DNA from: Eledone cirrhosa
Lineage: Eukaryota
Direction of reading: 5' to 3'
Assembly (NCBI GenBank): GCA_964016885.1
Contig: OZ024743.1
Span: 370,760,001-370,824,000 of the forward strand
Length of the DNA: 64,000 nucleotides
The notes under the pieces are model-generated. The model ran no database searches, was not told the DNA's origin, and was given only the letters and a program-made list of their open reading frames with translations. Of this stretch, positions 3,090-35,151 are shown piece after piece. The first letter of the stretch is position 1, and the number at the start of each line of letters is the position of its first letter. Position numbers and translations under genes: made by a program.

Positions 3090-3257
3090 TCAGCTAGCCA
3101 CTTGTGCAGAAACCTCTGATAATGGCAGTACACGGTTCAACTGGCTGTAACACTGCATGCAGACTGGTGCATGACGCTTTGGGAAATGGCCTGGCAGTGG
3201 TAGATGGGCAGCAATACAACGGGTACAGAACACCTCACCGCATCTCCAACAATGGTA
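3090..3257 (-). CDS. MTMR6: MTMR6/7/8-like terminal exon: C-half of FYVE domain and stop
   Basis: YHCWRCGEVFCTRCIAAHLPLPGHFPKRHAPVCMQCYSQLNRVLPLSEVSAQVAS*. TTTCAG acceptor; joins in frame to KK of the previous exon to complete 8 Zn-ligand cysteines. Confidence 0.9.
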   Translation of the reverse strand, partial: YHCWRCGEVFCTRCIAAHLPLPGHFPKRHAPVCMQCYSQLNRVLPLSEVSAQVAS

Positions 3258-3379
3258 CTGAAATATAAACACATACATATAAACATAGTACAAAATGAAG
3301 AAAGAATCATATAATAGCAAAGAAAAAGAATTTCATCAGCATATAACACACTACTACACGATTCAGAATACAATACATA

Positions 3380-6300
3380 TCACACTGTACCCTAAAAACC
3401 AGATCACAGTAACCTACACACCACACCACAGTACCCTACATACCACAGTACCCTACACAACACATCACTGTACCCTATACCCCACACCACAGTACTCTAC
3501 ACACCACATTACTGTACCCTATATGCCACAGTACCCTACACACCACATCACTGTACCCTATACCCCACACCACTGAACACTACACCTCAAACCACTGTAC
3601 CCTACACACCACACCACAGTACTCTACACACCACACCACTGTACCCTACACACCAAACCACTGTACCCTACACACCACACCACAGTACCCTACACACCAC
3701 ATCACTGTACCCTATACCCCACACACCACACCACAGTACCCTACACCAGTGGTCGCCAAACTTTCTAAAACCGAGGAACCCTCTAAATATTTTGAATTCT
3801 TCACGGAACCTATACAATACAAAACTTTTCAAAAAAAATAATGAAGTATTTATTTATTTTAGTGTTTCATGCGTGTGTATGTAATCGAACACAATTAACT
3901 AGTGGCTTTTCTGCTGCTGCGCCTCATCAGTGAGTTTAGAAAATCGAGGTTCAACACTAGTTAATGCCAGTCTCGTCAATTGCTGACAGTTTATTCCTCT
4001 TCTTTGTGCAGATTTCTACCAACTGCGAAAACCCTTTTTCGCACAAGTAGCGAGATGGGAATAAAGTCAAATATTTCAATGCAAGTTGGCTGATTTCATT
4101 AAACTCCCCAATCAAGAATAAGTCGATCCATAGTTCTTTCTTTCTGCTTTCGAATATCACTTTCAGGTCTTCGTTTGAATTCAAATCCATCAACTGATGT
4201 AAGCATTGTGCACGTAGTAAATTTTTACAATTTCCAGCGTCATTTTCTGACACTAACTGCTCGATCTCGGTGAATGGGTTTTTATCCATAAATTTCCGCT
4301 AACAATATCTTTTTCCATCAAGTCAAAATAATCTGAAAAACTTGTGGAAAGCACATTTAAATGAGAAAGAATAATCTTCTTTAGATTGCTGGAGTCAAAA
4401 TCTTCTCTCTTTTTAAGCTCTATTTCAAGGTTTGAAAGTAATGAGTAATTGTCCGATTCAATTCTTTTTATAAAGATGTTTAATTTTGATTGAAAATATG
4501 TATTCAAATTGATTGAAGTAAAAATATCTGCATTGTTACCCTGAAGGCACTTATTTAGTTTTTTCAGTTCACCAAAAATGTCTACTAAATAAGCGAGTTG
4601 CACATTCCATTCATTGGTTTCTAATACACTTGCTCTTTCATCATTGTTTTTTTAGAAAAACTATTATTTCTTCTCTCAGTTCAAAAACTCTCTTCATAGC
4701 ATCCCCAAAAGACAGCCAACGCACATCATTGTTCAATAACAATCTATTATAATTACTTCCAGAAGATTCACAAATAGATTAAAACATTCTAGAATTTTTT
4801 GCTCTTGCATGGATCAATTTGATAATTTTGACAATGTCTTTCAGCTGGTCATTTAATATTTGAGCATCTCTGTCTTTGAATTTTTTTTTAACACAAAACC
4901 TCTCGATGAATCATACAATGATTTGAAATACAATTTGGGGTCTATTCTTTAATTTTTGCAATCAAACCAGAATTTTTACCAGTCATTGCAGCCGCTCCAT
5001 CTGTTGTTATTGAAGTCAACTTGCTCCAAGATACACCATTTTTTTAAAAATACTCTTCAATTTTATTGAATATATCTTGACCTTTAGTTGTGATGTCTAA
5101 TACCAGACAAAACAAATACTCTTCTACTAATTCTTTTTTATCAAGGTCTACAAACCGTACATAGCAAATTAATTGAGCCTTGTTATTAATATCCGTAGTT
5201 TCGTCCACTTGCAGACCAAAACATGTGCTTTTCTTTAGTGCAGTTAGTATCTGATTTTCTATATCAGAAGAAATATCAATTATCCTTCTTTTTACAGTAT
5301 TTGCTAACAATGGTAACTGGCTTAGTTTTTCTTTGTCCTTAATACTGCAGCTTTCAAAAAGATTCTCTGTAGCAATTTTTATACTTGGCAGAATTAACTG
5401 TTCTCCTAATGTAAATGGTTTCTTGTTTTTACCAATCAAATGTGAAATCTAAAAAGATGTTCTTGTTAAAGCTTTATTTCTATCTGACTTTTTACAAAAC
5501 AAGTCATACATATTAGCTTGTGATTTGTTGATGTTGTTTTTCAGCGAAGTAAAGTGACTTATTTTTATCATTGGTGTGATTAGTATCAAGGTGTCTTTTA
5601 AGTTTTGCAGGATTTAAACAGCTATTTGATAGAACTTTTGAACATAGCAAACACATGGGCTGATCTGGTGTATCATTTTTAGTGTCAGCTTTTTGAAATC
5701 CATATCTAACATAATCATCACACCACTGTCTAACCTTACTGCAGGTATCTAACTTCAGCTTCTTTGCAGTAGACATCATATCAATGGTATTTATCTACAG
5801 TTAAACTTTCTATACACCACACCTCTGTACACTACACACCATACCACAGTACCCTACACACCACACCACAGTACCTACACACCACACCACAGTACTCTAC
5901 ACACCACACCACAGTACCCTACACACCACACCACAGTACCTACACACCACACCACAGTAACCTACACACCACACCACAGTACTCTACACACCACACCACA
6001 GTACCCTACACACCACACCACAGTACTCTACACACCACACCACAGTACCCTACACACCACACCACAGTACCTACACACCACACCACAGTACCCTACACAC
6101 CACACAACTGTACCCTATATACCACGCCACTGTACCCTACACACCAGACCACTGTACCCTACACACCACACCACTGTACCCTACACACCACACCACAGTA
6201 CCCTACACACCACACCACTGTACCCTACACACCACACCACAGTACCTACACACCACACCACAGTACCCTACACACCACACCACTGTACCCTACACACCAC

Positions 6301-9300
6301 ACCACAGTACCTACACACCACACCACAGTACCCTACACACCACACCACTGTACCCTATATACCACGCCACTGTACCCTACACAACACACCACTGTACCCT
6401 ACACACCACCACTGTACCCTACACACCACACCACAGTACCCTACACACCACACCACTGTACCCTTCACACCACACCACAGTACTCTACACACCACACCAC
6501 AGTACCCTACACACCACACCACAGTACCCTACACACCACACCACTGTACCCTTCACACCAGACTACAGTACCCTACACACCACACCACTGTACCCTACAC
6601 ACCACACCACTGTACCCTACACACCACACCACAGTACCCTACACACCACACCACTGTACCCTTCACACCACACCACAGTACTCTACACACCACACCACAG
6701 TACCCTACACACCACACCACTGTACCCTTCACACCACACCACAGTACTCTACACACCACACCACAGTACCCTACACACCACACCACTGTACCCTTCACAC
6801 AACACCACTGTACCCTTCACACCACACCACAGTACCCTACACACCACACCACTGTACCCTACACACCACACCACAGTACCCTTCACACCAGACCACTGTA
6901 CCCTATATACCACGCCACTGTACCCTACAAACCAGACCACTGTACCCTACAAACCTGACCACTGTACCCTACACACCACACCACACCACAGTACCCTACA
7001 CACCACACCACAGTACCCTACACACCACACCACTGTACCCTTCCCACCACACCATAGTATCCTTCACACCAGACCACTGTACCCTATATACCACGCCCCT
7101 GTACCCTACAAACCACACCACTGTACCCTTCCCACTTCACCACAGTACCCTACAAACCTGACCACTGTACCCTACACACCACACCACAGTACTCTACACA
7201 CCACACCACAGTACCCTTCACACCATACCACTGTACCCTACACACCACACTACAGTACCCTACACACCACACCATACCACAGTACCCTTCACACCAGACC
7301 ACTGTACCTACACATCACACCACAGTACCCTTCACACCACACCACTGTACCCTACACACCACACCACTGTACCTACACATCACACCACTGTACCCTTCAC
7401 ACCACACCACAGTACCCTACACACCACACTACAGTACCCTACACACCACACCACAGTACCCTACACACCACACCACAGTACCTACACACCACCACAGTAC
7501 CCTACACACCAGACCACTGTACCTACACACCACACCACAGTACCCTACACACCACACCACAGTACCCTTCACACCACACCACTGTACCCTACACACCACA
7601 CCACAGTACCCTATATACCACACCACAGTACCCTACACACCACACCACAGTACCCTACACACCACACTACAGTACCCTACACACCACACCACTGTACCCT
7701 ACACACCACACCACTACCCTACACGCCACACCACTGTACCCTACACACCACACCATAGTACCCTACACACCACGCCACACCACTGTACCCTACACACCAC
7801 ACCACTGTACCCTACACAACACACCACTGTACCCTACACACCACACCACTGTACCCTACACACCACACCACAGTACCCTACACACCACACCACTGTACCC
7901 TTCACACTACACCACAGTACTCTACACACCACAGTACTCTACACACCACACCACTGTACCCTTCACACTACACCACAGTACTCTACACACCACAGTACCC
8001 TACACACCACACCACTGTACCCTTCACACCACACCACAGTACCCTACACACCACACCACTGTACCCTTCACACTACACCACAGTACTCTACACACCACAG
8101 TACTCTACACACCACACCACTGTACCCTTCACACTACACCACAGTACTCTACACACCACAGTACCCTACACACCACACCACTGTACCCTTCACACCACAC
8201 CACAGTACCCTACACACGACACCACTGTACCCTTCACACTACACCACAGTACTCTACACACCACAGTACCCTACACACCACACCACTGTACCCTTCACAC
8301 TACACCACAGTACTCTACACACCACAGTACTCTACACACCACACCACTGTACCCTTCACACTACACCACAGTACTCTACACACCACAGTACCCTACACAC
8401 CACACCACTGTACCCTTCACACCACACCACAGTACCCTACACACCACACCACTGTACCCTTCACACTACACCACAGTACTCTACACACCACAGTACCCTA
8501 CACACCACACCACTGTACCCTTCACACCACACCACAGTACCCTACACACCACACCACTGTACCCTACACACCACACCACAGTACCCTACACACCACACCA
8601 CTGTACCCTTCACACTACACCACAGTACTCTACACACCACAGTACTCTACACACCACACCACTGTACCCTTCACACTACACCACAGTACTCTACACACCA
8701 CAGTACTCTACACACCACACCACTGTACCCTTCACACTACACCACAGTACTCTACACACCACAGTACCCTACACACCACACCACTGTACCCTTCACACCA
8801 CACCACTGTACCCTACACAACACACCACTGTACCCTACACACCACACCACTGTACCCTACACACCACACCACAGTACCCTACACACCACACCACTGTACC
8901 CTTCACACTACACCACAGTACTCTACACACCACAGTACCCTACACACCACACCACTGTACCCTTCACACCACACCACAGTACTCTACACACCACAGTACC
9001 CTACACACCACACCACAGTACCCTACACACCACACCACAGTACCCTACACACCACACCACAGTACTCTACACACCACACCACAGTACCCTACACACCACA
9101 CCACTGTACCCTTCACACCACACCACAGTACTCTACACACCACACCACAGTACCCTACACACCACACCACTGTACCCTACACACCACACCACAGTACCCT
9201 ACACACCACACAGTACCCTACACACCACACCACAGTACCCTACACACCACACCACTGTACCCTACACACCACACCACTGTACCCTTCACACCACACCACA

Positions 9301-12300
9301 GTACTCTACACACCACACCACAGTACCCTACACACCACACCACTGTACCCTTCACACCACACCTCAGTACTCTACACACCACACCACAGTACTCTACACA
9401 CCACACCACTGTACCCTACACACCACACCACTGTACCCTACACACCACACCACAGTACCCTACACACCACACCACAGTACCCTACACACCACACCACAGT
9501 ACCCTACACACCACAGTACCCTACACACCACACCACAGTACCCTACACACCACAGTACCCTACACACCACACCACAGTACTCTACACACCACACCACAGT
9601 ACCCTACACACCACACCACTGTACACTACACACCACACAACACCACTGTATCCTACACACCACACCACTGTACCCTACACACCACACCACAGTACCCTAC
9701 ACACCACACCACAGTACCCTACACACCACACCACTGTACCCTACACACCACACAACACCACTGTATCCTACACACCACACCACTGTACCCTACACACCAC
9801 ACCACAGTACCCTACACACCACACCACAGTACCCTACACACCACACCACAGTACTCTACACACCACACCACAGTACTCTACACACCACACCACTGTACCC
9901 TACACACCACACAACACCACTGTATCCTACACACCACACCACTGTACCCTACACACCACACCACAGTACCCTACACACCACACCACAGTACCCTACACAC
10001 CACACCACAGTACTCTACACACCACACCACAGTACTCTACACACCACACCACAGTACCCTACACACCACACCACAGTACTCTACACACCACACCACTGTA
10101 CCCTACACACCACACAACACCACTGTATCCTACACACCACACCACTGTACCCTTCATACCACACCACAGTACTCTACATACCACACCACTGTACCCTTCA
10201 CACCACACCACAGTACCCTACACACCACACCACAGTACTCTACACACCACACCACAGTACTCTACACACCACACCACAGTACTCTACACACCACACCACT
10301 GTACCCTTCACACCACACCACAGTACCCTACACACCACACCACAGTACTCTACACACCACACCACAGTACTCTACACACCACACCACAGTACTCTACACA
10401 CCACACCACTGTACCCTTCACACCACACCACAGTACCCTTCACACCAGACCACAGTACTCTACACACCACACCACAGTACCCTACACACCACACCACTGT
10501 ACCCTACACAACACACCACTGTACCCTACAAACCAGACCACTGTACCCTACACACCACCACAGTACCCTACACACCACACCACAGTACCCTACACACCAC
10601 ACCACTGTACCCTTCCCACCAGACCACTGTACTCTACACACCACACCACAGTACTCTACACACCACACCACAGTACCCTTCACACCATACCACTGTACCC
10701 TACACACCACACTACAGTACCCTACACACCACACCATACCACAGTACCCTTCACACCACACCACTGTACCTACACATCACACCACTGTACCCTTCACACC
10801 ACACCACAGTACCCTACACACCACACTACAGTACCCTACACACCACACCACTGTACCCTACACACCACACTACCCTACACATCACACCACAGTACCCTAT
10901 ACACCACACCACAGTACCCTACACACCACACCACAGTACCTACACACCACCACAGTACCCTACACACCAGACCACTGTACCTACACACCACACCACAGTA
11001 CCCTACACACCACACCACAGTACCCTTCACACCACACCACTGTACCCTACACACCACACCACAGTACCCTACACACCACACCACAGTACCCTACACACAC
11101 CACTGTACCCTTCACACCACACCACAGTACCCTACACACACCACTGTACCCTTCACACCACACCACAGTACCCTACACACCACACCACTGTACCCTTCAC
11201 ACTACACCACAGTACTCTACACACCACAGTACTCTACACACCACACCACTGTACCCTTCACACTACACCACAGTACTCTACACACCACAGTACCCTACAC
11301 ACCACACCACTGTACCCTTCACACCACACCACAGTACTCTACACACCACAGTACCCTACACACCGCACCACAGTACCCTACACACCACACCACAGTACCC
11401 TACACACCACTGTACCCTACACACCACACAGTACCCTACACACCACACCACAGTACCCTACACACCACACCACTGTACCCTACACACCACACCACTGTAC
11501 CCTACACACCACACCACAGTACCCTACACACCACACCACTGTACCCTTCACACCACACCACAGCACTCTACACACCACACCACGGTACCCTACACACCAC
11601 ACCACTGTACCCTTCACACCACACCTCAGTACTCTACACACCACACCACAGTACCCTACACACCACACCACTGTACCCTTCACACCACACCTCAGTACTC
11701 TACACACCACACCACAGTACCCTTCACACCACACCACAGTACTCTACACACCACACCACAGTACTCTACACACCACACCACTGTACCCTACACACCACAC
11801 CACAGTGCCCTACACACCACAGTACCCTACACACCACACCACAGTACCCTACACACCACACCACTGTACCCTACACACCACACCACAGTGCCCTACACAC
11901 CACAGTACCCTACACACCACACCACTGTACCCTACACACCACACCACAGTGCCCTACACACCACAGTACCCTACACACCACACCACAGTACCCTACACAC
12001 CACACCACTGTACCCTACACACCACACCACAGTGCCCTACACACCACAGTACCCTACACACCACACCACAGTACCCTACACACCACACCACTGTACCCTA
12101 CACACCACACCACAGTGCCCTACACACCACACCACTGTACCCTACACACCACACCACAGTGCCCTACACACCACAGTACCCTACACACCACACCACAGTA
12201 CCCTACACACCACACCACTGTACCCTACACACCGCACCACAGTGCCCTACACACCACAGTACCCTACACACCACACCACTGTACCCTACACACCACACCA

Positions 12301-15300
12301 CAGTGCCCTACACACCACAGTACCCTACACACCACACCACAGTACCCTACACACCACACCACAGTGCCCTACACACCACACCACTGTACCCTACACACCA
12401 CACCACAATGCCCTACACACCACAGTACCCTACACACCACACCACAGTACCCTACACACCACACCACTGTACCCTACACACCACACCACAGTGCCCTACA
12501 CACCACAGTACCCTACACACCACACCACTGTACCCTACACACCACACCACAGTGCCCTACACACCACAGTACCCTACACACCACACCACAGTACTCTACA
12601 CACCACACCACTGTACCCTACACACCACACCACAGTGCCCTACACACCACAGTACCCTACACACCACACCACAGTAACCTACACACCACACCACTGTACC
12701 CTACACACCACACCACAGTGCCCTACACACCACAGTACCCTACACACCACACCACTGTACCCTACACACCACACCACAGTACTCTACACACCACACCACA
12801 GTACTCTACACACCACACCACTGTACCCTACACACCACACCACAGTGCCCTACACACCACACCACAGTGCCCTACACACCACACCACAGTGCCCTACACA
12901 CCACACCACAGTGCCCTACACACCACAGTACCCTACACACCACACCACAGTACCCTACACACCACACCACAGTGCCCTACACACCACACCACTGTACCCT
13001 ACACACCACACCACAGTACTCTGCACACCACACCACAGTACTCTACACACCACACCACTGTACCCTACACACCACACCAGTGCCCTACACACCACACCAC
13101 AGTGCCCTACACACCACACCACAGTGCCCTACACACCACAGTACCCTACACACCACACCACAGTACCCTACACACCACACCACAGTGCCCTACACACCAC
13201 ACCACTGTACCCTACACACCACACCACAGTGCCCTACACACCACAGTACCCTACACACCACACCACAGTACCCTACACACCACACCACTGTACCCTACAC
13301 ACCACACCACAGTGCCCTACACACCACAGTACCCTACACACCACACCACAGTACTCTACACACCACACCACAGTACTCTACACACCACACCACTGTACCC
13401 TACACACCACACCACTGTACCCTACACACCACACCACAGTACCCTACACACCACACCACAGTGCCCTACACACCACAGTACCCTACACACCACACCACAG
13501 TACTCTACACACCACACTACAGTACCCTACACACCACACCACTGTACACTACACACCACACAACACCACTGTATCCTACACACCACACCACTGTACCCTA
13601 CACACCACACCACAGTACCCTACACACCACACCACAGTACTCTACACACCACACCACAGTACCCTACACACCACACCACAGTACCCTACACACCACACCA
13701 CAGTACTCTACACACCACACCACAGTACCCTACACACCACACCACAGTACCCTACACACCACACCACAGTACTCTACACACCACACCACAGTACCCTACA
13801 CACCACACCACAGTACTCTACACACCACACCACAGTACTCTACACACCACACCACTGTACCCTACACACCACACTACAGTACCCTACATACCACACCACT
13901 GTACCCTTCACACCACACCACAGTACCCTACACACCACACCACAGTACTCTACACACCACACCACAGTACTCTACACACCACACCACAGTACTCTACACA
14001 CCACACCACAGTACTCTACACACCACACCACTGTACCCTTCACACCACACCACAGTACCCTACACACCACACCACAGTACTCTACACACCACACCACAGT
14101 ACTCTACACACCACACCACAGTACTCTACACACCACACCACTGTACCCTTCACACCACACCACAGTACCCTTCATACCAGACCACAGTACTCTACACACC
14201 ACACCACAGTACCCTACACACCACACCACTGTACCCTACACAACACACCACTGTACCCTACAAACCAGACCACTGTACCCTACACACCACCACAGTACCC
14301 TACACACCACACCACAGTACCCTACACACCACACCACTGTACCCTTCCCACCAGACCACTGTACTCTACACACCACACCACAGTACCCTTCACACCAGAC
14401 CACTGTACCCTACACACCACACTACAGTACCCTACACACCACACCACAGTACCCTACACACCACACCACAGTACCCTTCACACCAGACCACTGTACTCTA
14501 CACACCACACCACAGTACCCTTCACACCAGACCACTGTACCCTACACACCACACCACAGTACCCTACACACCACACCACTGTACCCTTCCCACCAGACCA
14601 CTGTAGTCTACACACCACACCACAGTACCCTTCACACCAGACCACTGTACCCTACACACCACACTACAGTACCCTACACACCACACCACAGTACCCTTCA
14701 CACCAGACCACTGTACCCTATATACCACGCAACTGTACCCTACAAACCAGACCACTGTACCCTACAAACCTGACCATTGTACCCTACACACCACACCACA
14801 CCACAGTACCCTACACACCACACCACAGTACCCTACACACCACACCACAGTACCCTTCACACCAGACCACTGTACCCTACACACCACACTACAGTACCCT
14901 ACACACCACACCACTGTACCCTTCCCACCACACCATAGTATCCTTCACACCAGACCACTGTACCCTATATACCACGCCCCTGTACCCTACAAACCACACC
15001 ACTGTACCCTTCCCACTTCACCACAGTACCCTACAAACCTGACCACTGTACCCTACACACCACACCACAGTACTCTACACACCACACCACAGTACCCTTC
15101 ACACCATACCACTGTACCCTACACACCACACTACAGTACCCTACACACCACACCATACCACAGTACCCTTCACACCAGACCACTGTACCTACACATCACA
15201 CCACAGTACCCTTCACACCACACCACTGTACCCTACACACCACACCACTGTACCTTACACACCAGACCACTGTACCTACACATCACACCACTGTACACTT

Positions 15301-18300
15301 CACACCACACCACAGTACCCTACACACCGCACTACAGTACCCTACACACCACACCACTGTACCCTACACACCACACTACAGTACCCTACACATCACACCA
15401 CAGTACCCTATACACCACACCACAGTACCCTACACACCACACCACAGTACCTACACACCACCACAGTACCCTACACACCAGACCACTGTACCTACACACC
15501 ACACCACAGTACCCTACACACCACAGTACCTACACACCACACCACAGTACCCTTCACACCACACCACTGTACCCTATACACCACACCACAGTACCCTATA
15601 TACCACACCACAGTACCCTACACACCACACTACAGTACCCTACACACCACACCACTGTACCCTACACACCACACCACTACCCTACACGCCACACCACTGT
15701 AACCTACACACCACAGTACCCTACACACCACGCCACACCACTGTACCCTACACACCACACCACTGTACCCTACACAACACACCACTGTACCCTACACACC
15801 ACACCACTGTACCCTAGACACCACACCACAGTACCCTACACACCACGCCACACCACTGTACCCTACACACCACACCACTGTACCCTACACAACACACCAC
15901 TGTACCCTACACACCACACCACTGTACCCTACACACCACAGTACCCTACACACCACACCACTGTACCCTTCACACTACACCACAGTACTCTACACACCAC
16001 AGTACCCTACACACCACACCACGGTACCCTTCACACCACACCACAGTACTCTACACACCACAGTACCCTACACACCACACCACAGTACCCTACACACCAC
16101 ACCACTGTACCCTTCACACCACACCACAGTACTCTGCACACCACACCACAGTACTCTACACACCACACCACTGTACCCTACACACCACACCAGTGCCCTA
16201 CACACCACACCACAGTGCCCTACACACCACACCACAGTGCCCTACACACCACAGTACCCTACACACCACACCACAGTACCCTACACACCACACCACAGTG
16301 CCCTACACACCACACCACTGTACCCTACACACCACACCACAGTGCCCTACACACCACAGTACCCTACACACCACACCACAGTACCCTACACACCACACCA
16401 CTGTACCCTACACACCACACCACAGTGCCCTACACACCACAGTACCCTACACACCACACCACAGTACTCTACACACCACACCACAGTACTCTACACACCA
16501 CACCACTGTACCCTACACACCACACCACTGTACCCTACACACCACACCACAGTACCCTACACACCACACCACAGTGCCCTACACACCACAGTACCCTACA
16601 CACCACACCACAGTACTCTACACACCACACTACAGTACCCTACACACCACACCACTGTACACTACACACCACACAACACCACTGTATCCTACACACCACA
16701 CCACTGTACCCTACACACCACACCACAGTACCCTACACACCACACCACAGTACTCTACACACCACACCACAGTACCCTACACACCACACCACAGTACCCT
16801 ACACACCACACCACAGTACTCTACACACCACACCACAGTACCCTACACACCACACCACAGTACCCTACACACCACACCACAGTACTCTACACACCACACC
16901 ACAGTACCCTACACACCACACCACAGTACTCTACACACCACACCACAGTACTCTACACACCACACCACTGTACCCTACACACCACACTACAGTACCCTAC
17001 ATACCACACCACTGTACCCTTCACACCACACCACAGTACCCTACACACCACACCACAGTACTCTACACACCACACCACAGTACTCTACACACCACACCAC
17101 AGTACTCTACACACCACACCACAGTACTCTACACACCACACCACTGTACCCTTCACACCACACCACAGTACCCTACACACCACACCACAGTACTCTACAC
17201 ACCACACCACAGTACTCTACACACCACACCACAGTACTCTACACACCACACCACTGTACCCTTCACACCACACCACAGTACCCTTCATACCAGACCACAG
17301 TACTCTACACACCACACCACAGTACCCTACACACCACACCACTGTACCCTACACAACACACCACTGTACCCTACAAACCAGACCACTGTACCCTACACAC
17401 CACCACAGTACCCTACACACCACACCACAGTACCCTACACACCACACCACTGTACCCTTCCCACCAGACCACTGTACTCTACACACCACACCACAGTACC
17501 CTTCACACCAGACCACTGTACCCTACACACCACACTACAGTACCCTACACACCACACCACAGTACCCTACACACCACACCACAGTACCCTTCACACCAGA
17601 CCACTGTACTCTACACACCACACCACAGTACCCTTCACACCAGACCACTGTACCCTACACACCACACCACAGTACCCTACACACCACACCACTGTACCCT
17701 TCCCACCAGACCACTGTAGTCTACACACCACACCACAGTACCCTTCACACCAGACCACTGTACCCTACACACCACACTACAGTACCCTACACACCACACC
17801 ACAGTACCCTTCACACCAGACCACTGTACCCTATATACCACGCAACTGTACCCTACAAACCAGACCACTGTACCCTACAAACCTGACCATTGTACCCTAC
17901 ACACCACACCACACCACAGTACCCTACACACCACACCACAGTACCCTACACACCACACCACAGTACCCTTCACACCAGACCACTGTACCCTACACACCAC
18001 ACTACAGTACCCTACACACCACACCACTGTACCCTTCCCACCACACCATAGTATCCTTCACACCAGACCACTGTACCCTATATACCACGCCCCTGTACCC
18101 TACAAACCACACCACTGTACCCTTCCCACTTCACCACAGTACCCTACAAACCTGACCACTGTACCCTACACACCACACCACAGTACTCTACACACCACAC
18201 CACAGTACCCTTCACACCATACCACTGTACCCTACACACCACACTACAGTACCCTACACACCACACCATACCACAGTACCCTTCACACCAGACCACTGTA

Positions 18301-21300
18301 CCTACACATCACACCACAGTACCCTTCACACCACACCACTGTACCCTACACACCACACCACTGTACCTTACACACCAGACCACTGTACCTACACATCACA
18401 CCACTGTACACTTCACACCACACCACAGTACCCTACACACCGCACTACAGTACCCTACACACCACACCACTGTACCCTACACACCACACTACAGTACCCT
18501 ACACATCACACCACAGTACCCTATACACCACACCACAGTACCTACACACCACCACAGTACCCTACACACCAGACCACTGTACCTACACACCACACCACAG
18601 TACCCTACACACCACAGTACCTACACACCACACCACAGTACCCTTCACACCACACCACTGTACCCTATACACCACACCACAGTACCCTATATACCACACC
18701 ACAGTACCCTACACACCACACTACAGTACCCTACACACCACACCACTGTACCCTACACACCACACCACTACCCTACACGCCACACCACTGTAACCTACAC
18801 ACCACAGTACCCTACACACCACGCCACACCACTGTACCCTACACACCACACCACTGTACCCTACACAACACACCACTGTACCCTACACACCACACCACTG
18901 TACCCTAGACACCACACCACAGTACCCTACACACCACGCCACACCACTGTACCCTACACACCACACCACTGTACCCTACACAACACACCACTGTACCCTA
19001 CACACCACACCACTGTACCCTACACACCACAGTACCCTACACACCACACCACTGTACCCTTCACACTACACCACAGTACTCTACACACCACAGTACCCTA
19101 CACACCACACCACGGTACCCTTCACACCACACCACAGTACTCTACACACCACAGTACCCTACACACCACACCACAGTACCCTACACACCACACCACTGTA
19201 CCCTTCACACCACACCTCAGTACTCTACACACCACACCACAGTACCCTACACACACCACTGTACCCTTCACACCACACCACAGTACCCTACACACCACAC
19301 CACTGTACCCTACACACCACACCACAGTACCCTACACACCACACCACAGTACTCTACACACCACACCACAGTACTCTACACACCACACAACTGTACCCTT
19401 CATACCACACCACAGTACTCTACATACCACACCACTGTACCCTTCACACCACACCACAGTACCCTACACACCACACCACAGTACTCTACACACCACACCA
19501 CAGTACTCTACACACCACACCACAGTACTCTACACACCACACCACAGTACTCTACACACCACACCACTGTACCCTTCACACCACACCACAGTACCCTACA
19601 CACCACACCACAGTACTCTACACACCACACCACAGTACTCTACACACCACACCACAGTACTCTACACACCACACCACTGTACCCTTCACACCACACCACA
19701 GTACCCTTCACACCAGACCACAGTACTCTACACACCACACCACAGTACCCTACACACCACACCACTGTACCCTACACAACACACCACTGTACCCTACAAA
19801 CCAGACCACTGTACCCTACACACCACCACAGTACCCTACACACCACACCACAGTACCCTACACACCACACCACTGTACCCTTCCCACCAGACCACTGTAC
19901 TCTACACACCACACCACAGTACCCTTCACACCAGACCACTGTACCCTACACACCACACTACAGTACCCTACACACCACACCACAGTACCCTACACACCAC
20001 ACCACAGTACCCTTCACACCAGACCACTGTACTCTACACACCACACCACAGTACCCTTCACACCAGACCACTGTACCCTACACACCACACCACAGTACCC
20101 TACACACCACACCACAGTACCCTTCACACCAGACCACTGTACCCTACACACCACACTACAGTACCCTACACACCACACCACAGTACCCTACACACCACAC
20201 CACAGTACCCTTCACACCAGACCACTGTACCTACACACCACACTACAGTTCCCTACACACCACTCCACTGTACCCTACACACCACACCACTGTACCCTAC
20301 ACAACACACCACTCTACCCTACACACCACACCACACCACAGTACCTACACACCACACCACAGTACCCTACACACCACACCACTGTACGCTACACACCACA
20401 CCACAGTACCTTTCACACCAGACCACTTACCCTACACACCACACCACAGTACCCTACACACCACACCACTGTACCCTACACACCACACCACAGTACCCTA
20501 TATACCACACCACAGTACCCTACACACCACACCACAGTACCCTTCACACCAGACCACTGTACTCTACACACCACACCACAGTACCCTTCACACCAGACCA
20601 CTGTACCCTACACACCACACCACAGTACCCTACACACCACACCACAGTACCCTTCACACCAGACCACTGTACCCTACACACCACACTACAGTACCCTACA
20701 CACCACACCACAGTACCCTACACACCACACCACAGTACCCTTCACACCAGACCACTGTACCTACACACCACACTACAGTTCCCTACACACCACTCCACTG
20801 TACCCTACACACCACACCACTGTACCCTACACAACACACCACTCTACCCTACACACCACACCACACCACAGTACCTACACACCACACCACAGTACCCTAC
20901 ACACCACACCACTGTACGCTACACACCACACCACAGTACCTTTCACACCAGACCACTTACCCTACACACCACACCACAGTACCCTACACACCACACCACA
21001 GTACCCTACACACCACCCCACTGTACCCTACACACCACACCACAGTACCCTATATACCACACCACAGTACCCTACACACCACACTACAGTACCCTACACA
21101 CCACACCACTGTACCCTACACACCACACCACAGTACCCTTCACACCAGACCACTGTACCCTACACACCACACCACAGTACCCTATATACCACACCACAGT
21201 ACCCTACACACCACACCACTGTACCCTACACACCACACCACTACCCTACACACCACACGACTGTACCCTACACACCACACCACAGTACCCTACACACCAC

Positions 21301-24300
21301 ACCACTGTACCCTACACACCACACCACTGTACCCTACACAACACACCACTGTACCCTACACACCACCACTGTACCCTACACACCACACCACTGTACCCTA
21401 TATACCACGCCACTGTACCCTTCACACCACACCACTGTACGCTACACAACACACCACTGTACCCTACACACCACCACTGTACCCTACACACCACACCACA
21501 GTACCCTACACACCACACCACACCACTGTACCCTACACACCACACCATACCACTGTACCCTACACACCACACCACTGTACCCTACACAACACACCACTGT
21601 ACCCTACACACCACCACTGTACCCTACACACCACACCACAGTACGCTACACACCACACCACACCACTGTACCCTACACACCACACCACACCACTGTACCC
21701 TTCACACCACACCACAGTACTCTACACACCACACCACAGTACCCTACACACCACACCACAGTACCCTTCCCACCACACCACAGTATCCTTCACACCAGAC
21801 CACTGTACCCTATATACCACGCCACTGTACCCTACAAACCAGACCACTGTACCCTACAAACCTGACCACTGTACCCTACACACCACACCACAGTACTCTA
21901 CACACCACAGTACCCTTCACACCACACCACTGTACCCTACACACCACACCACAGTACCCTACACACCACAGTACCCTTCACACCAGACCACTGTACCTAC
22001 ACACCACACCACAGTACCCTATATACCACACCACAGTACCCTTCACACCAGACCACAGTACCCACTACACCACAGTACCCTTCACACCAGACCACTGTAC
22101 CCTTCACACCACACCACAGTACCCTACACACCACACCACTGTACCCTACACACCATACCACTACCCTACACACCACACCACTGTACCCTACACACCACAC
22201 CACAGTACCCTACACACCACACCACTGTATCCTACACACCACACCACTGTACCTTACACACCACCCCACAGTACCCTACACACCACACCACTGTACCCTT
22301 CACACCACACCACAGTACCCTACACACCACACCACTGTACCCTACACACCACACCACTACCTTACACACCACCCCACAGTACCCTACACACCACACCACT
22401 GTACCTTCACACCACACCACAGTACTCTACACACCACCCCACAGTACCCTACACACCACACCACTGTACCCTTCACACCACACCACTGTACCCTACACAC
22501 CACACCACAGTACCCTACACACCACACCACTGTACCCTACACACCACACTACAGTACCCACCACACCACAGTACCCTTCACACCAGACCACTGTACCCTA
22601 TATACCACGCCACAGTACCCTACCCACCACACCACAGTACCCTACACACCAGACCACTGTACCCTACACACCACACCACAGTACCCTTCACACCAGACCA
22701 CTGTACCCTACACACCACACTACAGTACCCTACACACCACACCACAGTACCCACCACACCACTGTACCCTACACACCACACCACAGTACCCACCACACCA
22801 CAGTACCCTTCACACCAGACCACTGTACCCTATATACCACGCCACTGTACCCTACAAACCAGACCACTGTACCCTACAAACCAGACCACTGTACCCTACA
22901 CACCACACCACTGTACCCTACACACCACACCACAGTACCCTACACACCACACCACTGTACCCTACACACCAGACCACTGTACCCTACACACCACACCACA
23001 GTACCCTACACGCCACACCATAGTACCCTACACACCACACCACTGTACCCTACACACCAGACCACTGTACCCTATACACCACACCACAGTACCCTACACA
23101 CCACACCACAGTACCCTACACACCACACCACTGTACCCTACACACCACACCACTGTACCCTTCCCACCACACCACAGTATCCTTCACACCAGACCACTGT
23201 ACCCTACAAATCAGACCACAGTACCCTACACACCACACCACAGTACCCTACACACCACACCACTGTACCCTACACACCACACCACAGTACCTTCACACCA
23301 CACCACAGTACTCTACACACCACACCACAGTACCCTACACACCACACCACAGTACCCTTCACACCAGACCACTGTACCCTACACACCACACTACAGTACC
23401 CTACACACCACACCACAGTACCCTACACACCACACCACAGTACCCACCACACCACCCTTCACACCACACCACAGTACCCTATATACCACGCCACTGTACC
23501 CTACAAACCAGACCACTGTACCCTACAAACCAGACCACTGTACCCTACACACCACACCACAGTACCCTACACACCACACCACAGTACCCTACACACCACA
23601 CCACTGTACCCTACACAACACACCACTGTACCTTCACACCACACCACAGTACTCTACACACCACACCACAGTACCCTTCACACCAGACCACAGTACCCTT
23701 CACACCAGACCACTGTACCCTACACACCACACTACAGTACCCTACACACCACACCACAGTACCCTACACACCACACCACAGTACCCTTCACACCAGACCA
23801 CTGTACCCTATATACCACGCCACTGTACCCTACAAACCAGACCACTGTACCCTACAAACCAGACCACTGTACCCTACACACCACACCACAGTACCCTACA
23901 CACCACACCACTGTACCCTTCCCACCACACCACAGTACCCTTCACACCAGACCACTGTACTCTACACACCACACCACAGTACTCTTCACACCACACCACA
24001 GTACCCTACACACCACACCACACCACAGTACCCTATATACCACACCACTGTACCCTTCACACCACACCACAGTACCCTACACACCACACCACAGTACCCT
24101 ACACACCACACCACTGTACCCTACACACCACACTACAGTACCCTACACACCACACCACAGTACCCTACACACCACACCACTGTACCCTACACACCACACC
24201 ACTGTACCCTACACACCACACTACAGTACCCTACACACCACACCACAGTACCCTACACACCACACCACTCTACCCTACACACCACACCACTGTACCCTAC

Positions 24301-24392
24301 ACACCACACCACAGTACCCTACACACCACACCACTGTACCCTACACACCACACTACAGTACCCTACACACCACACCACAGTACCCTACACAC
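3380..24392. repeat. About 19-kb intronic minisatellite, 22-bp consensus CAGTACCCTACACACCACACCA (interrupted at 3747-5810)
   Basis: Directly visible tandem array with variants CTGTAC, CTCTA, CCTTCA, CAGAC, CAGTGC and 17-bp short units. Roughly 850-900 units, estimated from length. Confidence 0.99.
3747..5810 (-). mobile_element. hAT (Buster/Charlie-type) DNA transposon with disrupted transposase
   Basis: ORF pieces give a BED finger (CLLC..LKRHLDTNH), QVDETTD, TTDGAAAMTG, HCMIHR, RWLS and YLCEKGFS, with several frameshifts and stops. TIR-like CAGTGGTCGCCAAACT at 3747, preceded by CCCTACAC (nnnTAnnn). Other TIR absent. Confidence 0.93.
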
Positions 24393-24430
24393 CCAAAATA
24401 GTGCAAAAGTAAGTAAAGAATGTTACTAAC

Positions 24431-24865
24431 TTTTTTTGAGAAGTGTTCAAAAGAATATGCACAGCTGCAGTTCTGTACATTGCGGAATGGCTTCCAGTCA
24501 ATAGCAACTGATGCTAATTCTTCATAGAGTTGAGCTTTTGTGAGGGGTTCAGCACTGCCACCAGTGATACTCATCAATGCCACAACACTGGACACCAAAC
24601 CATCATCAATACCTGAGCGAGACAGTTGTGAGCTTGATTCATCAAAGCCAGACTCAGTGTCACTCTTTCCAGCAATATGGTTGCTTTCTGATTCAAACGA
24701 CTTGGTGAGGGTTAAATTAGTACTGCTCAGCTTATCACCCCCATTCTCTTCAGCAGGTTCTGTCAGTAAAACCCCATCTAGAGAATCCATTGATGAGAAA
24801 CACTGTAGCTTACGCTGGATCACTTCTTCAGAAATACCCATTCGTTTGCAAAGGTCATTGATTCT
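24431..24865 (-). CDS. MTMR6: MTMR6/7/8-like exon: linker and N-half of FYVE domain
   Basis: RINDLCKRMGISEEVIQRK...AIDWKPFRNVQNCSCAYSFEHFSKK. TAG acceptor, GTTAGT donor, 435 nt, phase 0/0. Confidence 0.88.
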
Positions 24866-26691: not shown

Positions 26692-26818
26692 CATTTCCAG
26701 TAACCGTATATGGTCTTCAAGGGAGCTGCTGTGTTCTTTAGCTGTTGCCAATGTATCCATTATTTCTTCTCTAGGATGCACACCAGCATCAAAGCGGTTG
26801 TACATTCCTTTCCAAAAT
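26692..26818 (-). CDS. MTMR6: MTMR6/7/8-like exon (start of coiled coil)
   Basis: (R)FWKGMYNRFDAGVHPREEIMDTLATAKEHSSSLEDHIRLLEM. TAG acceptor, GTAAGT donor, 127 nt. Confidence 0.93.
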
Positions 26819-27064
26819 CTATGGAAGAAGCACATTAGATTTGTCTTTATTCAAATATTGACATTTGGACAATGTAGTATGCTCTAACATTTTTGCAATA
26901 GTATTACTATTATAATGTACAATATTATATTGAAAACATGAATCACTTTTGTATTTATTGAACACAATGTTCAATGATGGGAGTGTCAGGAAAGGCAAAA
27001 AGGTGATTAAATAAGAATACTATCATATTTACTATTATAAGTTATTATTATTATCATCCTCATA

Positions 27065-27253
27065 AGGGTGGTGGATTGGCATTATCGGTAGAGGGTCAGA
27101 CGCTATGCTTTGCAGCATGGTCCTTTATGATCTGAGTTCAAATCCCGCCGAGGTTAACTTTGCCTTTCATCCTTACGGGGTCGATAAAATAAAGTACCAG
27201 TAATACACTGGGTAATTGCTGGCCTTGTGCCTAACGTAGAAACAATTATTATT
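27065..27253 (+). mobile_element. tRNA-derived SINE (family A)
   Basis: Full-length homolog of 25160-25352. Confidence 0.88.
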
Positions 27254-27254
27254 T

Positions 27255-27735
27255 GATGGTGTTGTTTCTATTGTATTGAGAGTACTCTTTGTAAAACGAG
27301 GGTGGTGCCTAGTAATGTTATTGTTTGTAAGCTGTGTATATTTGTAGGTCCAAGCCTTTGGTTATGTATATGTCTGTGTTTCTTTTATCATTCCTAGAGA
27401 ACCTATTATTAAAGTTATTGTTTCTGTCTTCATCATCCACATTTGGTTTGTTTCTATTTCAAGATCTTTATATTTAGATAGTTTCTATTTCCTTGGTAGA
27501 AATATTGTTATCTGTGGGGATTGATACATCAATTAGAAGATATTTTTTTCTTTGAAGTCTTTCACTATAGTATCTGATTGGTTAGTTTTGATCTCCCTAT
27601 ATGTGAGTATTGGCATATCCCAGAGAATGGTTGCTTTGTCATTCTCTTAATCATTTTCTGGTGTGTGTCAGTACATATTTTGTCTGTTGGCATAATTTCC
27701 AGTGTATGTAAGTTTTCTTGTGCATTCAACTGGTT
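27255..27735 (-). mobile_element. R4/Dong-like non-LTR element, restriction-like endonuclease remnant
   Basis: Manual translation gives ENDKATILWDMPILT..YLLIDVSIPTDNNISTKE..YKDLEIE..W..IIGSLG (PD-D type RLE), disrupted. Confidence 0.75.
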
Positions 27736-28362
27736 TGAGAGCTTGGTTCTTCATCTCATAAGGATTTTCCTATCTCTGGGAATAAGATTTTTGTGTCTGT
27801 TGGCCTTTTTCTCCAGGACAAACTTTTGGCATATAGTGTGTATCGTTGTCATGACGTGTTGAAATTGTGTGTTGGTGTCTTGTGCTCCATATTTGCTTCC
27901 GGATTTCTCTCTTGGTCTTTTTCCAGTTAGCCTTGTAGAAGTTAAGGCTGGATAACATCCCGGTGCTTCTTGATGGTTGTGTCTCTGTTGGTTCTCTCGG
28001 ACCACATATCATTACTTCTACTAAGTTATGATCCGAGAAAATTGTTGGTGTCACCTTTACATTGTGGATGAGCACTTCATTGTTTGCAAAACAGAGGTCC
28101 AGGACATTTTCACCTCTTGTTGGGAGGAGTACTGCTTGTTCCATGAACAGCCTGTATGTGAGGGCCAGCAGGGACTCTGTCTGTCTCTGTTCTAATGACG
28201 TCATTCCAGGGAGGATGTGGCCCTCAGGCCATTTGACCTTTGGCAAGTTGAAGTCTCCCAGCAGTAGAATGTTGAGACCCTGGTTCAGTTTGTCAAGGAC
28301 CTCTTCTATCCTACTGAGGCTATCCTCAAATTTACCCTCATGACTGGGGGCATCGGGTGGCT
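27736..28362 (-). mobile_element. CR1/Jockey-group LINE fragment (APE endonuclease)
   Basis: PPDAP..ILLLGDFNLPKVKW..PTRGENVLDLCF..IFSDHNLVEV. Confidence 0.85.
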
Positions 28363-28599
28363 AATAATATATAATTTTCTCTATATATTATCTGCGTAAA
28401 TCATTCATCATATTTAACGGTTAGCAAACAAGATTGGCGTTATCTTTTCCTTTTCAATCGTGCAAACATAAACATTATAATATATGTATGATAAACTATA
28501 TAACTTTGCTAAATTAACAATATTCTGAAAACATTTTCAATGTTGGAACAAAATATTTGAATTTACAAATTGTTCTCCTCTTAAAACTTGAACTACATG

Positions 28600-30373
28600 T
28601 TTTTTTTATGTAAAATGACGAGATATTTATAAACCATGCACAATATTATAATAAGGCTCTTTCTGAATCTGGTTATGAACAATCCATTTACTACATACCT
28701 AAATGCCATAACACAGCAACTCACCATAATAAACTTAACGCTAGAACTAGAAATACCTTAGCATAGAGCCAGTTCGCCGGAATTTTAGCAGTAACAGCAC
28801 CAACACAGGGAAGTTAAATGGTGGCAGCGGCCTGCTCCCCACTCCAAGTAGCAAACTAAAAATCAACCCTAGAATAGGAATGAGAAATGGGATGACAAAT
28901 AACAAATCCCCAGGTAATAATAACCCTAGGAAGGCCCCTACCAACTCCACTAGAACCCCTAGAAGGAATAGACCTAGAAATATCACCTGGCTTAACCCCC
29001 CATTCTCATCTAATGTAGCCACTAATATCCCTAACCGCTTCTTCTCTATCCTATCTAAACATTTCCCCCCCAACCATAGATATTACAAACTCTTTAATAA
29101 AAATAACATTAAAATCTCATTCTCCACAACACCTAACCTAGCTAGCCACATCGCATTCAGTAACCATCATAAGCTAAGACACTATAACTCCCACACCGCG
29201 GTACCACCACCCCTATCAAATACACCACGCCACTACACCAATAATTACTCTAGTAGCACACCTCCCCCATCTAATCCTTCTAGCACTGACCAACCGCTTA
29301 GGTTAAACTACCCTACTCTCACTAACCGCAGAAGCAACTGCAACTGCCGTTACCCTAATGCATGCCCATTAAATGGACACTGCCTGACACCCAATATATT
29401 TTATAGGTGCACGGTTAAAACTGCTTCGAATACCAGCTCTTATATTGGGTCTACCTCTAACCCTTTTAAGGTATGCTATAACGCACACTCTTTTTCTTTC
29501 CAAGACCCTAGCAACAGATGTTCGACAACTCTAGCTAGGCTCATTAAAAACCTTAAATTAAGCAACATTAAACACTCACTAAAATGGGATATCGTAGCTA
29601 GGGCCCAACCGTTCAATGGACAAAGAAAATCCTGTGATCTCTGTATTACTGAAGCATATTACATAACTCTATCACGACATCTACCGATTAACGATAGAAC
29701 GGAGGTAACTATTAGCTGTCAACATCGAAGGGCTAATTCCTTCGCCAATAGAATATTTGACCCAACATAGTCATCTAGCCCCATTTTCACTTGTAGCTAA
29801 TAAGTTAAATAGCTATAACTAACTTAGATAATTATAAGTTACCTCTCTTACATTGTCTCTCAATTAAAAAATTTAAAAATTAGCACTTAACTATAAACTA
29901 CCCACAATTTCAAATCTCTTGAGGAGTTACTTCCCCTGAAACCACCCTCTAATTAGTAAGGTAAATATGTCCTTTGGCGGCCATCTTGTTACCCATAGGC
30001 AGATCTCACACAATGCAGCCTCGACAGATGAATACTGCTTGATTATGGCTGACAACTGATACAACCAGGACACCATAGTGAAACACCAATATATGGAACA
30101 CTACATTATGTAACATTCTCTCCTTATTTTAATTTATATTCCTTTGAAGTTCCGATGAGCTGCTCTGTTTTTAAATATGTTAATTATTTTCAACTGAACA
30201 GATCAATAATGATATATAGTCATCTGATCCAGAAATATTATATGGAGTAGCGAAACAATTGTAAACGGACATTATTATTATTCTCTATATTCCTTACATC
30301 AAACTAAAATATGTTGACAATCTTTTAATAATGTCTTCCTTGTGAAATTTGTGGTCTTGTTTTGCTTAACTAA

Positions 30374-30380
<7 letters not shown>
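28600..30380 (+). mobile_element. Penelope-like element, 5'-truncated: GIY-YIG endonuclease ORF (28880-29770) and 3' terminal repeat region
   Basis: YYNKALSESGY thumb remnant; RNITWLNPPFS, CNCRYPNACPLNGHC, IFY..YIGST, CDLCITEAYYI. Hammerhead-like motif downstream; ends in (TA)n. Confidence 0.88.
30149..30266 (+). ncRNA. Type I hammerhead-like motif (degenerate core)
   Basis: GTT-CCGATGA-GCTGCTCTGT...ATGGAGTAGC-GAAA-CAATTG-TA-AAC. 10-bp stem II, palindromic stem III, core U4>C, 3-bp stem I. Confidence 0.6.
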
Positions 30381-30439
<59 letters not shown>

Positions 30440-30443
<4 letters not shown>

Positions 30444-31414
30444 GTGGCATAGGTATGCATCTGTATATATATGTTGGTAGATATACTAATTCTTTATAAT
30501 TATCTCCAAATTATTTTATTGAGCAAAAATTTGCCAAAACTACTACTATGGTTCATAGTAATAGTCAGGCTACTGTCTTATTAGCACCCCACTCCTCACG
30601 TGATTGATTCTTTTGAATTTGCCACCGACCAAGTAGGCAGTGATTTTTTCAATGTCCTGGAATTTAGTCCTCGCTTGCTTTTTTCCATCCACTGAATTAT
30701 TTTTGTATAAGTTCCCTGTGTCCACGCATTGCCTGGGAACTTAGCTGAGAATAGACTTCCTGAAGACGAAAGGATTTTCTCCATGTTGTTCCATTCGGAA
30801 ACCATGTTTATTCCCTTTCAGAAACTAATTAGTTGGAGTGAAATTTTAGTAAGTTAATTTTTATAATTTTCTTATTTTACGTCTTTCATATAATTGTTCT
30901 GCATTCCCGTGCATTGAACCACAAAGTTACTAAGACAAAACCTATATATTTGCTGGCATAGGTATGCATCTGTATATATATGTTGGTAGATATACTAATT
31001 CTTTATAATTATCTCCAAATTATTTTGTTGAGCAAAAATTTGCCAAAACTACTACGATGGTTCATAGTAATAGTCAGGCTACTGTCTTATTAGCACCCCA
31101 CTCCTCACTGATTAATCTCAATGTCACGTGATTGATTCTTTTGAATTTGCCACCGACCAAGTAGGCAGTGATTTTTTCAATGTCCTGGAATTTAGTCCTC
31201 GCTTGCTTTTTTCCATCCACTGAATTATTTTTGTATAAGTTCCCTGTGTCCACGCATTGCCTGGGAACTTAGCTGAGAATAGACTTCCTGATGACGAAAG
31301 GATTTTCTCCATGTTGTCCATTCGGAAACCATGTTTATTCCCTTTCAGAAAGTAATTAGTTGGAGTGAAATTTTAGTAAGTAAGTTAATTTTTATAATTT
31401 TCTTATTTTACATC

Positions 31415-31421
<7 letters not shown>
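30440..31421 (+). repeat. Two tandem ~0.5-kb direct repeats, each with a hammerhead-like core (pLTR/retrozyme-like)
   Basis: 30440-30892 is nearly identical to 30948-31421. CTGAAGA at 30760 and CTGATGA at 31288, each followed by CGAA..TTCG-GAAAC. Confidence 0.85.
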
Positions 31422-31461
<40 letters not shown>

Positions 31462-31519
31462 TACAAATATACATATATATATATGTACGTATATACATAT
31501 ATATATACATATATATATG

Positions 31520-33985: not shown

Positions 33986-34119
33986 CATATATATATACAT
34001 ATACTTATATATATATACACATTATATGTATACACACACACACATATATATATATACACACATATATATAGCAAAAATATGAAGAATAACATGGTCAGCT
34101 GTACAATAGGGTTTATTTA

Positions 34120-34232
34120 CAGTATTAACAATTGTTTCTTTAGTCTGGTGAGTCTAAAAGTCACTGAAAGTTAGAAGTTACGTCAGTCAACCTTAATTAC
34201 AGTCGATCCCCGACCAAATCATCAGAATACTG
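34120..34232 (-). ncRNA. Type I hammerhead ribozyme with long loop II
   Basis: Minus strand: CAGTATT-CTGATGA-TTTGGTC-(66 nt)-GACTAAA-GAAA-CAATTG-TT-AATACTG. Perfect 7-bp stem I, 7-bp stem II, intact core. Confidence 0.85.
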
Positions 34233-35108
34233 ATTTGTACATAACACAGGGCACTGGTATTTATAGATACATGGGAGAATAACATAAATGAAAACAACAA
34301 TAATAATCATAAGAAGATTAATGATAATAATAGTAGTAGTGGTAGTAGTAATAGTTGTAATAGTGAGTGGATAGAGGCGTAAAATAGTAATGACGGTGTA
34401 ATAAAAATAACATGGAAAAAGTGGGGGTTTGAAGAGATAGTGTGATAAGCAAGATGCTGGTCAGTCATAAAATGATGTATTGGCGCCATTCCAATATAGT
34501 GGGTTATATTCATGAATTGGCGGAATAAAGACTAAAAAATAAAAAATAAAGAATAAAAAATAAAAAGACAATGATAACAGATGGGTGATTAAGGTTGAGG
34601 TATTTTGAATGTTTTATCTTAATGGAGGTGAGGATTGATGGTAACGTTGTGTGAGAGGATGTGTCTATAAAGAGTTGACGGACTGCCGATTGATTTTATG
34701 TCCGATTGGTCAACTAACAATTAATTATAGTGGGGATGTGTAAAGTTGATCCGTTGGTGTCAGTGTAGTAGACATTCTAAATCCGGGTGGTTTGAATGGA
34801 TAGTGAGATTGCCGGATCGAATCATGTTTGTCATGGTTTGTAGTTAGAGAATTTAGTGGTGGCTTTGTGCCTACAGAAAATTGTTTGCTCGATCTTGCTA
34901 TTGAGCAGCATTTTGTTATATTGTAGAATACAATATACATATATATATATATTGTTATGCTTTGGGAGAGTCATGTTGCCAATAAGAAACACACGCACCA
35001 GTTGCTTTCACTCCAATTTATTATAAATTAAATTTATAAATTTAAGAATTTATAAATTTCCGGTTGGTTGGTTGGTTGGTTCCATAACCGGACGGTTGTT
35101 CATATATT

Positions 35109-35151
35109 GTCAAAGTTCTTTCGTCACACATTCTGTGACCTCTTCAGTGAC
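35109..35151 (-). ncRNA. Minimal type I hammerhead-like motif
   Basis: GTCA-CTGAAGA-G-GTCACA-GAATG-TGTGAC-GAAA-GAAC-TT-TGAC. Confidence 0.65.

Follow-up and report, generated by a model that had tools for sequence, protein, structure and literature searches.

A minisatellite-filled last intron and a predicted donor choice at the FYVE finger of an octopod MTMR6/7/8 myotubularin gene

The last intron of an octopod myotubularin gene interrupts the codons of the FYVE finger and is filled for the most part with a 22-bp tandem repeat, which raises the question whether the repeat has any part in deciding if the finger is made. We addressed this question in a window of 64,000 nt, i.e. the whole stretch of DNA that was analysed (Eledone cirrhosa, assembly GCA_964016885.1, contig OZ024743.1, positions 370,760,001 to 370,824,000 of the forward strand). 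The gene is located on the minus strand and encodes a phosphatase of the MTMR6/7/8 (R6) group. We consider it probable that an old intron has been swollen by a neutral minisatellite and a broken hAT-like element, and that inclusion of the FYVE finger is set upstream of the repeat by an older competition between two donor sites.

The last intron and its age

The last intron spans positions 3258..24430 on the minus strand (21,173 nt, phase 0, GT-AG). According to tblastn with the Octopus bimaculoides protein XP_014786257 (P0001), the junction lies after K682 and before Y683, 22 residues into the 63-residue Pfam FYVE match (residues 661-723 of P0001), which bears out the initial annotation that a 21-kb intron splits the finger at FSKK|YHCWRCG. 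The acceptor reads TTTCAG| before position 3257 on the minus strand. With -3.3 kcal/mol the donor, AAA|GTTAGTAA (AAA|GTTAGT; 24423..24433, minus strand, last exonic base 24431), is the second weakest of ten donors. Behind the donor, 37 nt of flank lead into an array of 18,584 nt; then follow 2,063 nt of non-repeat sequence, a relic array of 364 nt and, up to the acceptor, 125 nt of flank. The limits reported earlier (38 nt past the donor, ~120 nt before the acceptor) lie close to these. The accompanying statement that almost no unique intron remains had overlooked a hAT-like element of 2,063 nt (9.7% of the intron) at 3747-5809, and the repeat fraction of the intron is 0.895 (89.5%).

The other nine introns of the gene measure 0.9-13.4 kb, the last intron being 1.6 times as long as the next-longest. 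A repeat-filled intron as such matters little, octopus introns being long and repeat-rich: for O. minor the available part of PMC6279123 gives a mean intron length of 5.4 kb and a share of simple repeats of 14.7% of the genome.

Both exon limits are common to genomic-type open reading frames (ORFs) of chiton-, abalone-, clam-, pond-snail- and squid-like sources. In 14 of 18 proteins that end or change at the KK site the next residue is Val or Ala, as expected from reading into a phase-0 GT or GC donor, and isoforms of Haliotis (abalone) carry five extra residues precisely at the KK junction. These comparisons show that the intron position is, to judge by the relatives covered, mollusc-wide (chiton, bivalves, snails, squid) and older than the repeat. 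Because the position is common across molluscs the repeat did not create the intron, and the satellite was discarded as its creator. The abalone insert reads EFSLK in the basic patch of the FYVE finger (P0029, P0031, P0034, P0035, P0037, P0038, P0040, P0041) and would correspond to a 15-nt micro-exon or an alternative site.

FYVE-less isoforms and a proposed choice between two donors

In 24 of 244 fetched homologues the FYVE region is replaced by the C-terminal sequence V[PS]LLE[MV][RW]. For large clusters (16, 86, 29 and 17 members) the best 15 proteins of each were used; 14 homologues are unclassified and all were kept in n, and the FYVE-keeping proteins P0132, P0151 and P0104 sit in the class that changes at the KK site. 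The FYVE-less forms come from 18 named species and one more out of three mollusc classes, namely chiton (Liolophura X3), Dreissena, Mactra, Mercenaria, four scallops, four mussels, oysters and the snail Gigantopelta. Most of them are RefSeq isoforms listed alongside a FYVE-containing form. When scanned against Pfam, they have lost FYVE and kept the phosphatase and PH-GRAM domains.

The FYVE-less tail results from reading the last exon in a shifted frame. In the window the last coding exon (3090..3257, minus strand) contains the regular stop codon and encodes six of the eight cysteines of FYVE; its shifted frame yields PLLEMR, followed by TGA at 3237-3235. The residues at the FYVE-less junction are Ser|Gly in general, Asp|Gly in Gigantopelta, while oysters and mussels have Thr or Pro before the Gly. 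In genomic-type ORFs the Ser|Gly junction lies within one exon, and a bivalve-like genomic contig (L001) reads GT there. Since the junction is internal to one exon and reads GT, the FYVE-less form arises from an alternative 5' splice site rather than from exon skipping. A second route, read-through of the weak donor at the KK site, is annotated in O. sinensis X4 (P0022, RefSeq) and chiton X1 (P0155). For our gene the read-through peptide is as the initial annotation had written it; half a FYVE finger was an overstatement, as 22 of 63 residues and two of eight cysteines lie upstream of the donor. Its proposal of a switch between forms with and without FYVE holds insofar as both isoforms are real in relatives, but nothing links them to the array, and the main FYVE-less route is the exon-internal upstream donor.

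A matching site is predicted in the octopod. The penultimate coding exon (24431..24865, minus strand, 435 nt), which ends with the first 22 FYVE residues and two cysteines, contains the candidate alternative 5' splice site CAG|GTATTGAT (24605..24615, minus strand, last exonic base 24613, phase 1), which coincides with the splice position of the chiton and bivalve FYVE-less isoforms. It lies 182 nt upstream of the FYVE donor, scores -7.2 kcal/mol and ranks second among 111 exonic GTs. The product predicted from joining 24613 to 3257 has the same last nine residues as chiton P0154. Both the donor GT and the shifted-frame stop fall on glycine GGT codons; as GGT makes up 13 of the 32 Gly codons, the chance of both is ~0.17.

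The decision between the two forms, which is apparent from the annotation of relatives and predicted here, would thus be made upstream of the array by two donors 182 nt apart. Use of the weak downstream donor would give the complete finger. Use of the upstream donor would put the last exon out of frame with a stop after seven residues there, the product being a phosphatase with the layout of vertebrate MTMR6/7/8. A stop codon in the last exon does not trigger nonsense-mediated decay, and the upstream-donor message would escape it because its stop falls in that exon.

Relatives differ in how the downstream donor reads. Ala follows the KK site in chiton, clam-, abalone- and Gigantopelta-like and Pinctada proteins (P0155, P0156, P0157, P0237, P0238, P0241, P0104). 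This implies, at the level of protein sequence, a conserved GC donor, with GT in cephalopods and several snails. A metagenome scan gave 230 pattern matches that come down to one locus, which ends short of the downstream donor; the GC donor is thus read from protein. Where the FYVE-less isoform was observed, the downstream donor mostly reads Ala, although abalone reads Ala without the isoform. The seven Ala-reading relatives thereby resemble known pairs of alternative donors with a weak or GC member, whereas the downstream donor of the window is a weak GT and not GC. GC donors are enriched among alternatively spliced genes, as stated in the accessible part of PMC2490688.

Several points weigh against the explanation we prefer. 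Statements on splicing in this species are predictions from sequence, and the neutrality of the repeat is our inference. The shifted-frame tail is absent from all 19 proteins of cephalopod or cephalopod-like origin, so that in the octopod the upstream donor may be a vestige, and no FYVE-less isoform was seen among the homologues where the downstream donor reads Val (GT). The two GGT codons may coincide by chance (~17%), and the shifted-frame peptide is largely dictated by the FYVE codons, its conservation alone being no sign of selection. Some FYVE-less models are non-RefSeq predictions and could reflect gene finders avoiding GC donors. Acceptor and donor scores come from crude models, two true acceptors scoring below zero in leave-one-out, and some GT sites of the array pair with the donor consensus to -11.1 kcal/mol, stronger than the real donors; the array may therefore contain cryptic donors. 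Cephalopods may have weakened the switch. That the octopod still uses the upstream donor to an appreciable extent is possible, and we lean slightly against it. Among the matches listed for sequenced contigs over 24350-26900, there was no splice joint.

Irrespective of its use in octopods, the switch is the more informative part of the locus. Molluscs appear to make FYVE-containing and vertebrate-like FYVE-less layouts from one gene via a conserved alternative donor that is visible in database isoforms. These two natural layouts make the role of the atypical FYVE finger directly testable in oyster, mussel and octopus. In a literature search whose coverage left out most subscription journals we found no description of a FYVE-less MTMR6/7/8 splice form in molluscs; the search likewise returned nothing on intronic minisatellites of cephalopods. 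We regard the conserved splice switch as a modest novelty and the array itself as an ordinary intronic variable number tandem repeat (VNTR).

The repeat array and its possible effects

The main minisatellite covers 5810..24393 and comprises 855 copies of a 22-bp unit according to Tandem Repeats Finder (TRF), its sense strand consisting of 48% G and 34% T. Parsing the array gave 823 segments of 109 monomer types, 35 of them singletons, with nested local duplications of variants; the units are 3-8% diverged from the commonest monomer. The relic array at 3383..3746 (364 nt) has the identical 22-bp unit, is 10.2% diverged and is separated from the main array by the transposon. Elsewhere in the window the core motif of the unit does not occur.

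The transposon (3747..5809, minus strand, sense with respect to the gene) is a decayed, 5'-truncated hAT-like DNA element containing pieces of a BED finger, DUF4371 and a hAT-dimerisation domain in this order. The profile matches have E values of 0.001-0.005, each under the Pfam curated cut-off, and the frames are broken. We found a single terminal repeat, at 3747, which we take to be an end of the CAGTGG type. Allowing up to 4 mismatches we detected no partner for it in the window, and none of the 25 longest inverted pairs (94 in total) supplied one. The element thus lacks the paired terminal inverted repeats with 8-bp target duplication of hAT transposons, and its 5' end is lost.

These features are consistent with the following course of events. 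A local 22-bp unit would have grown to the 18.6-kb array by slippage and unequal exchange. The transposon would then have inserted near one end and cut off a relic that diverged on its own, and later lost its 5' end. The higher divergence of the relic (10.2% versus 3-8%) fits the isolation of one end of the array by the transposon.

Further, we assessed whether the array offers signals that compete with splicing. Past the donor, the sense strand contains no AATAAA or ATTAAA for 18.95 kb; the first hexamer is located at 5478, and all eight poly(A) hexamers of the intron fall in the transposon. The true acceptor ranks second among 1,569 intronic AGs with a score of 4.2, while the best of the 1,394 AGs in the main array reaches 1.1. 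The acceptor model is a crude one, trained on the nine other acceptors of the gene. As the array has neither an acceptor competing with the real one nor a poly(A) signal, the spliceosome would define the two flanking exons normally and the repeats would be spliced out whole. For the same reason the array should, if anything, make a stable read-through message less likely. Overall it looks like inert filler.

A few further readings of the intron sequence were rejected. The array is not a series of micro-exons and introns, as its 22-nt units have no competitive acceptor. A plus-strand frame at 18052-24426 with 2,125 His/Thr/Pro-rich codons is not a gene, since the unit is simply free of stops on the plus strand; it could mislead gene finders. 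Within the transposon the BED-finger frame 5794-5516 is apparently intact, with a poly(A) hexamer 35 nt past its stop. An exchange of FYVE for this BED finger (in-frame AG at 5794, hexamer at 5478) was discarded: the AG ranks 573rd of 1,569 and owes its frame to an in-frame TAG.

How far the assembled length can be trusted is a separate matter, and one compatible with the explanation we favour. Within the array a tandem duplication of about 3.1 kb (13002..19205) has copies at 13002-16114 and 16115-19205 that show no substitution and differ by one 22-nt unit only. It may be a very recent unequal crossover or an assembly error. There is some possibility, which we consider unlikely on balance, that the array length is inflated by such an error, with at least the 3.1-kb duplicate being false or two haplotypes having been joined, and that the true intron measures ~18 kb or less. 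Against this the rest of the array is heterogeneous, as evident from its 35 singleton monomers. Contigs from three runs (X1-X3) of one sample pass the donor and continue for 30 nt within the repeat, free of differences; a fourth run (share 0.25) covered repeats and none of the exons. Summed contig depth is 3,400-5,100 in the bin at the edge of the repeat versus 6-14 in the exon, with an upper bound of 4,373-fold calculated from the array, and is thus of the order expected; it is not a copy number, and the sample is possibly the source of the assembly itself. Taken as a rough hint, the depth agrees better with a genuine local array, hundreds of copies long, than with a satellite spread over the genome. 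The initial annotation had named an assembly artefact as a way to overturn its reading; this concern stands for the exact duplicate, whereas a wholly artefactual array is very improbable.

Somewhat less likely still is a role of the array as a cis-acting modifier of splicing, in which G-triplets or UG-rich units, or slowed elongation, shift the donor balance or cause intron retention. The arrangement invites such a reading: a weak FYVE donor faces a stronger competitor 182 nt upstream, and a G-rich array (48% G) starts 37 nt past the donor, i.e. adjacent to the splice site. The best comparison is intron 18 of ABCA7, in which a G-rich unit of ~22-25 bp likewise extends over many kb near a donor, with variant repeats and with flanking exons that encode one domain. 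In the available part of PMC6660495 this VNTR ranges from 0.3 to >10 kb and correlates with exon skipping and domain loss, and the accessible text of PMC10078293 counts 9,537 splicing-associated repeats in humans. Unlike the ABCA7 VNTR, for which length variation and a correlation with splicing are on record, the array of the window is interrupted by a transposon. The isoform switch extends across three classes and so predates by far the array, with its units only 3-8% diverged. The sense strand contains 689 G-runs with a mean G4Hunter score of 0.82, but only 1.3% of 25-nt windows reach 1.2. Moreover, any effect would be expected to stem from the nearest units and not from total length. It is quite improbable, in our estimate, that the mollusc-old FYVE switch is still active here and tuned by the young G/UG-rich minisatellite, with array length as a heritable dial on the localisation of the phosphatase. 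The locus nevertheless provides a ready test of the effect of a large donor-proximal minisatellite on splice-site choice.

The weakest alternative is the one put forward in the initial annotation, namely that the array delays transcription or acts as a length-dependent switch like the Y-loop introns of Drosophila, with read-through giving the FYVE-less form. RNA polymerase elongates at 1-4 kb/min, and at these assumed rates the intron would be transcribed within 5-21 min. The repeat-filled intron is real, read-through isoforms of the KK-site donor are annotated (P0022, P0155) and timer roles have been proposed for genes of 10-80 kb, yet 21 kb is ~200-fold below the Y-linked gigantic genes of >4 Mb with their ~3.5 days of transcription (figures from the accessible part of PMC11207136), the catalytic domain is already transcribed when this last intron is reached, and a read-through message would not meet a poly(A) hexamer for 18.95 kb, so that we regard this idea as highly improbable. 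Like kl-3, kl-5 and ORY of Drosophila our gene is a conserved coding gene with an intron filled with a tandem repeat (89.5% here). According to the same excerpt those genes carry AAGAC and AATAT satellites and form spermatocyte loops, and their gigantic size is not approached by 21,173 nt of a 22-bp unit.

The gene, its FYVE finger and neighbouring features

The minus-strand gene comprises 11 exons from ~62667 to 3093 as located by tblastn with XP_014786257. This protein, annotated as myotubularin-related protein 8 of O. bimaculoides, was the top match of 14 when the exon adjoining the last-intron donor was used as query. Nine upstream exons (26692..62667, upper limit approximate, minus strand) encode the myotubularin phosphatase domain, and N-terminal exons lie outside the window. 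When 10 of the 11 exons were joined, we obtained an open frame with one stop, in which 563 of 584 residues (96%) are identical to P0001. The catalytic motif HCSDGWDRT is intact in this frame, where the phosphatase domain PF06602 was also matched. PF21098 (MTMR6-like PH-GRAM) was matched on P0001, the PH-GRAM exons being mostly beyond the window. Against human structures P0001 scored 701 bits with MTMR6, 570 with MTMR8 and 414 with MTMR2, the closest solved structures being human MTMR6 2yf0 and MTMR8 4y7i. By these matches the gene is the octopod MTMR6/7/8 orthologue with a C-terminal FYVE finger.

Canonical FYVE domains that bind phosphatidylinositol 3-phosphate (PI3P) have the signatures WxxD, R(R/K)HHCR and RVC. 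Membership in the family is indicated by the last exon, which alone gives 35.4 bits on PF01363 (above the cut-off), and by eight cysteines in ligand-like spacing. At the signature positions our gene reads WKPF, KKYHCW and PVC, aligning with HHCR and RVC of Hrs with substitutions. Because the canonical signatures are not matched, lipid binding by this finger is uncertain. PF01363 was detected in 77 of 79 homologues found, and these FYVE-bearing R6 myotubularins span molluscs, annelids, arthropods, echinoderms, hemichordates and amphioxus. This is contrary to a survey that describes FYVE as characteristically absent from the R6 group in the accessible part of its text (PMC2927912).

Fly Mtmr6/CG3530 and C. 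elegans MTM-6 are, like our gene, R6 myotubularins with a C-terminal FYVE, unlike human MTMR6-8, which lack it. The available passages of PMC7594499 and PMC8726729 describe the human proteins in this way and give fly Mtmr6 a FYVE domain and three isoforms, and those of PMC4257696 list four isoforms for worm mtm-6; in the isoform passages of these three papers no FYVE-less splice form is described. The passage of PMC7594499 terms the fly FYVE N-terminal; it is C-terminal in the proteins that we scanned with Pfam.

Other repeats occur in and around the gene. A second, small minisatellite with a ~32-bp unit and 10 copies is located in another intron (44396-44700). The 13.4-kb intron contains broken frames at 27773-35673 which presumably derive from endonucleases of long interspersed nuclear elements (LINEs) and from Penelope-type (GIY-YIG) elements. 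Broken reverse-transcriptase and endonuclease-like frames at 50182-53046 (minus strand), 47303-48060 and 1-349 are presumably remains of RTE-type LINEs. Finally, a very high-copy short repeat at 25200-25550, which we take to be similar to short interspersed nuclear elements (SINEs), is partly duplicated with an 86-bp period and reaches a summed contig depth of ~10 million versus ~12.

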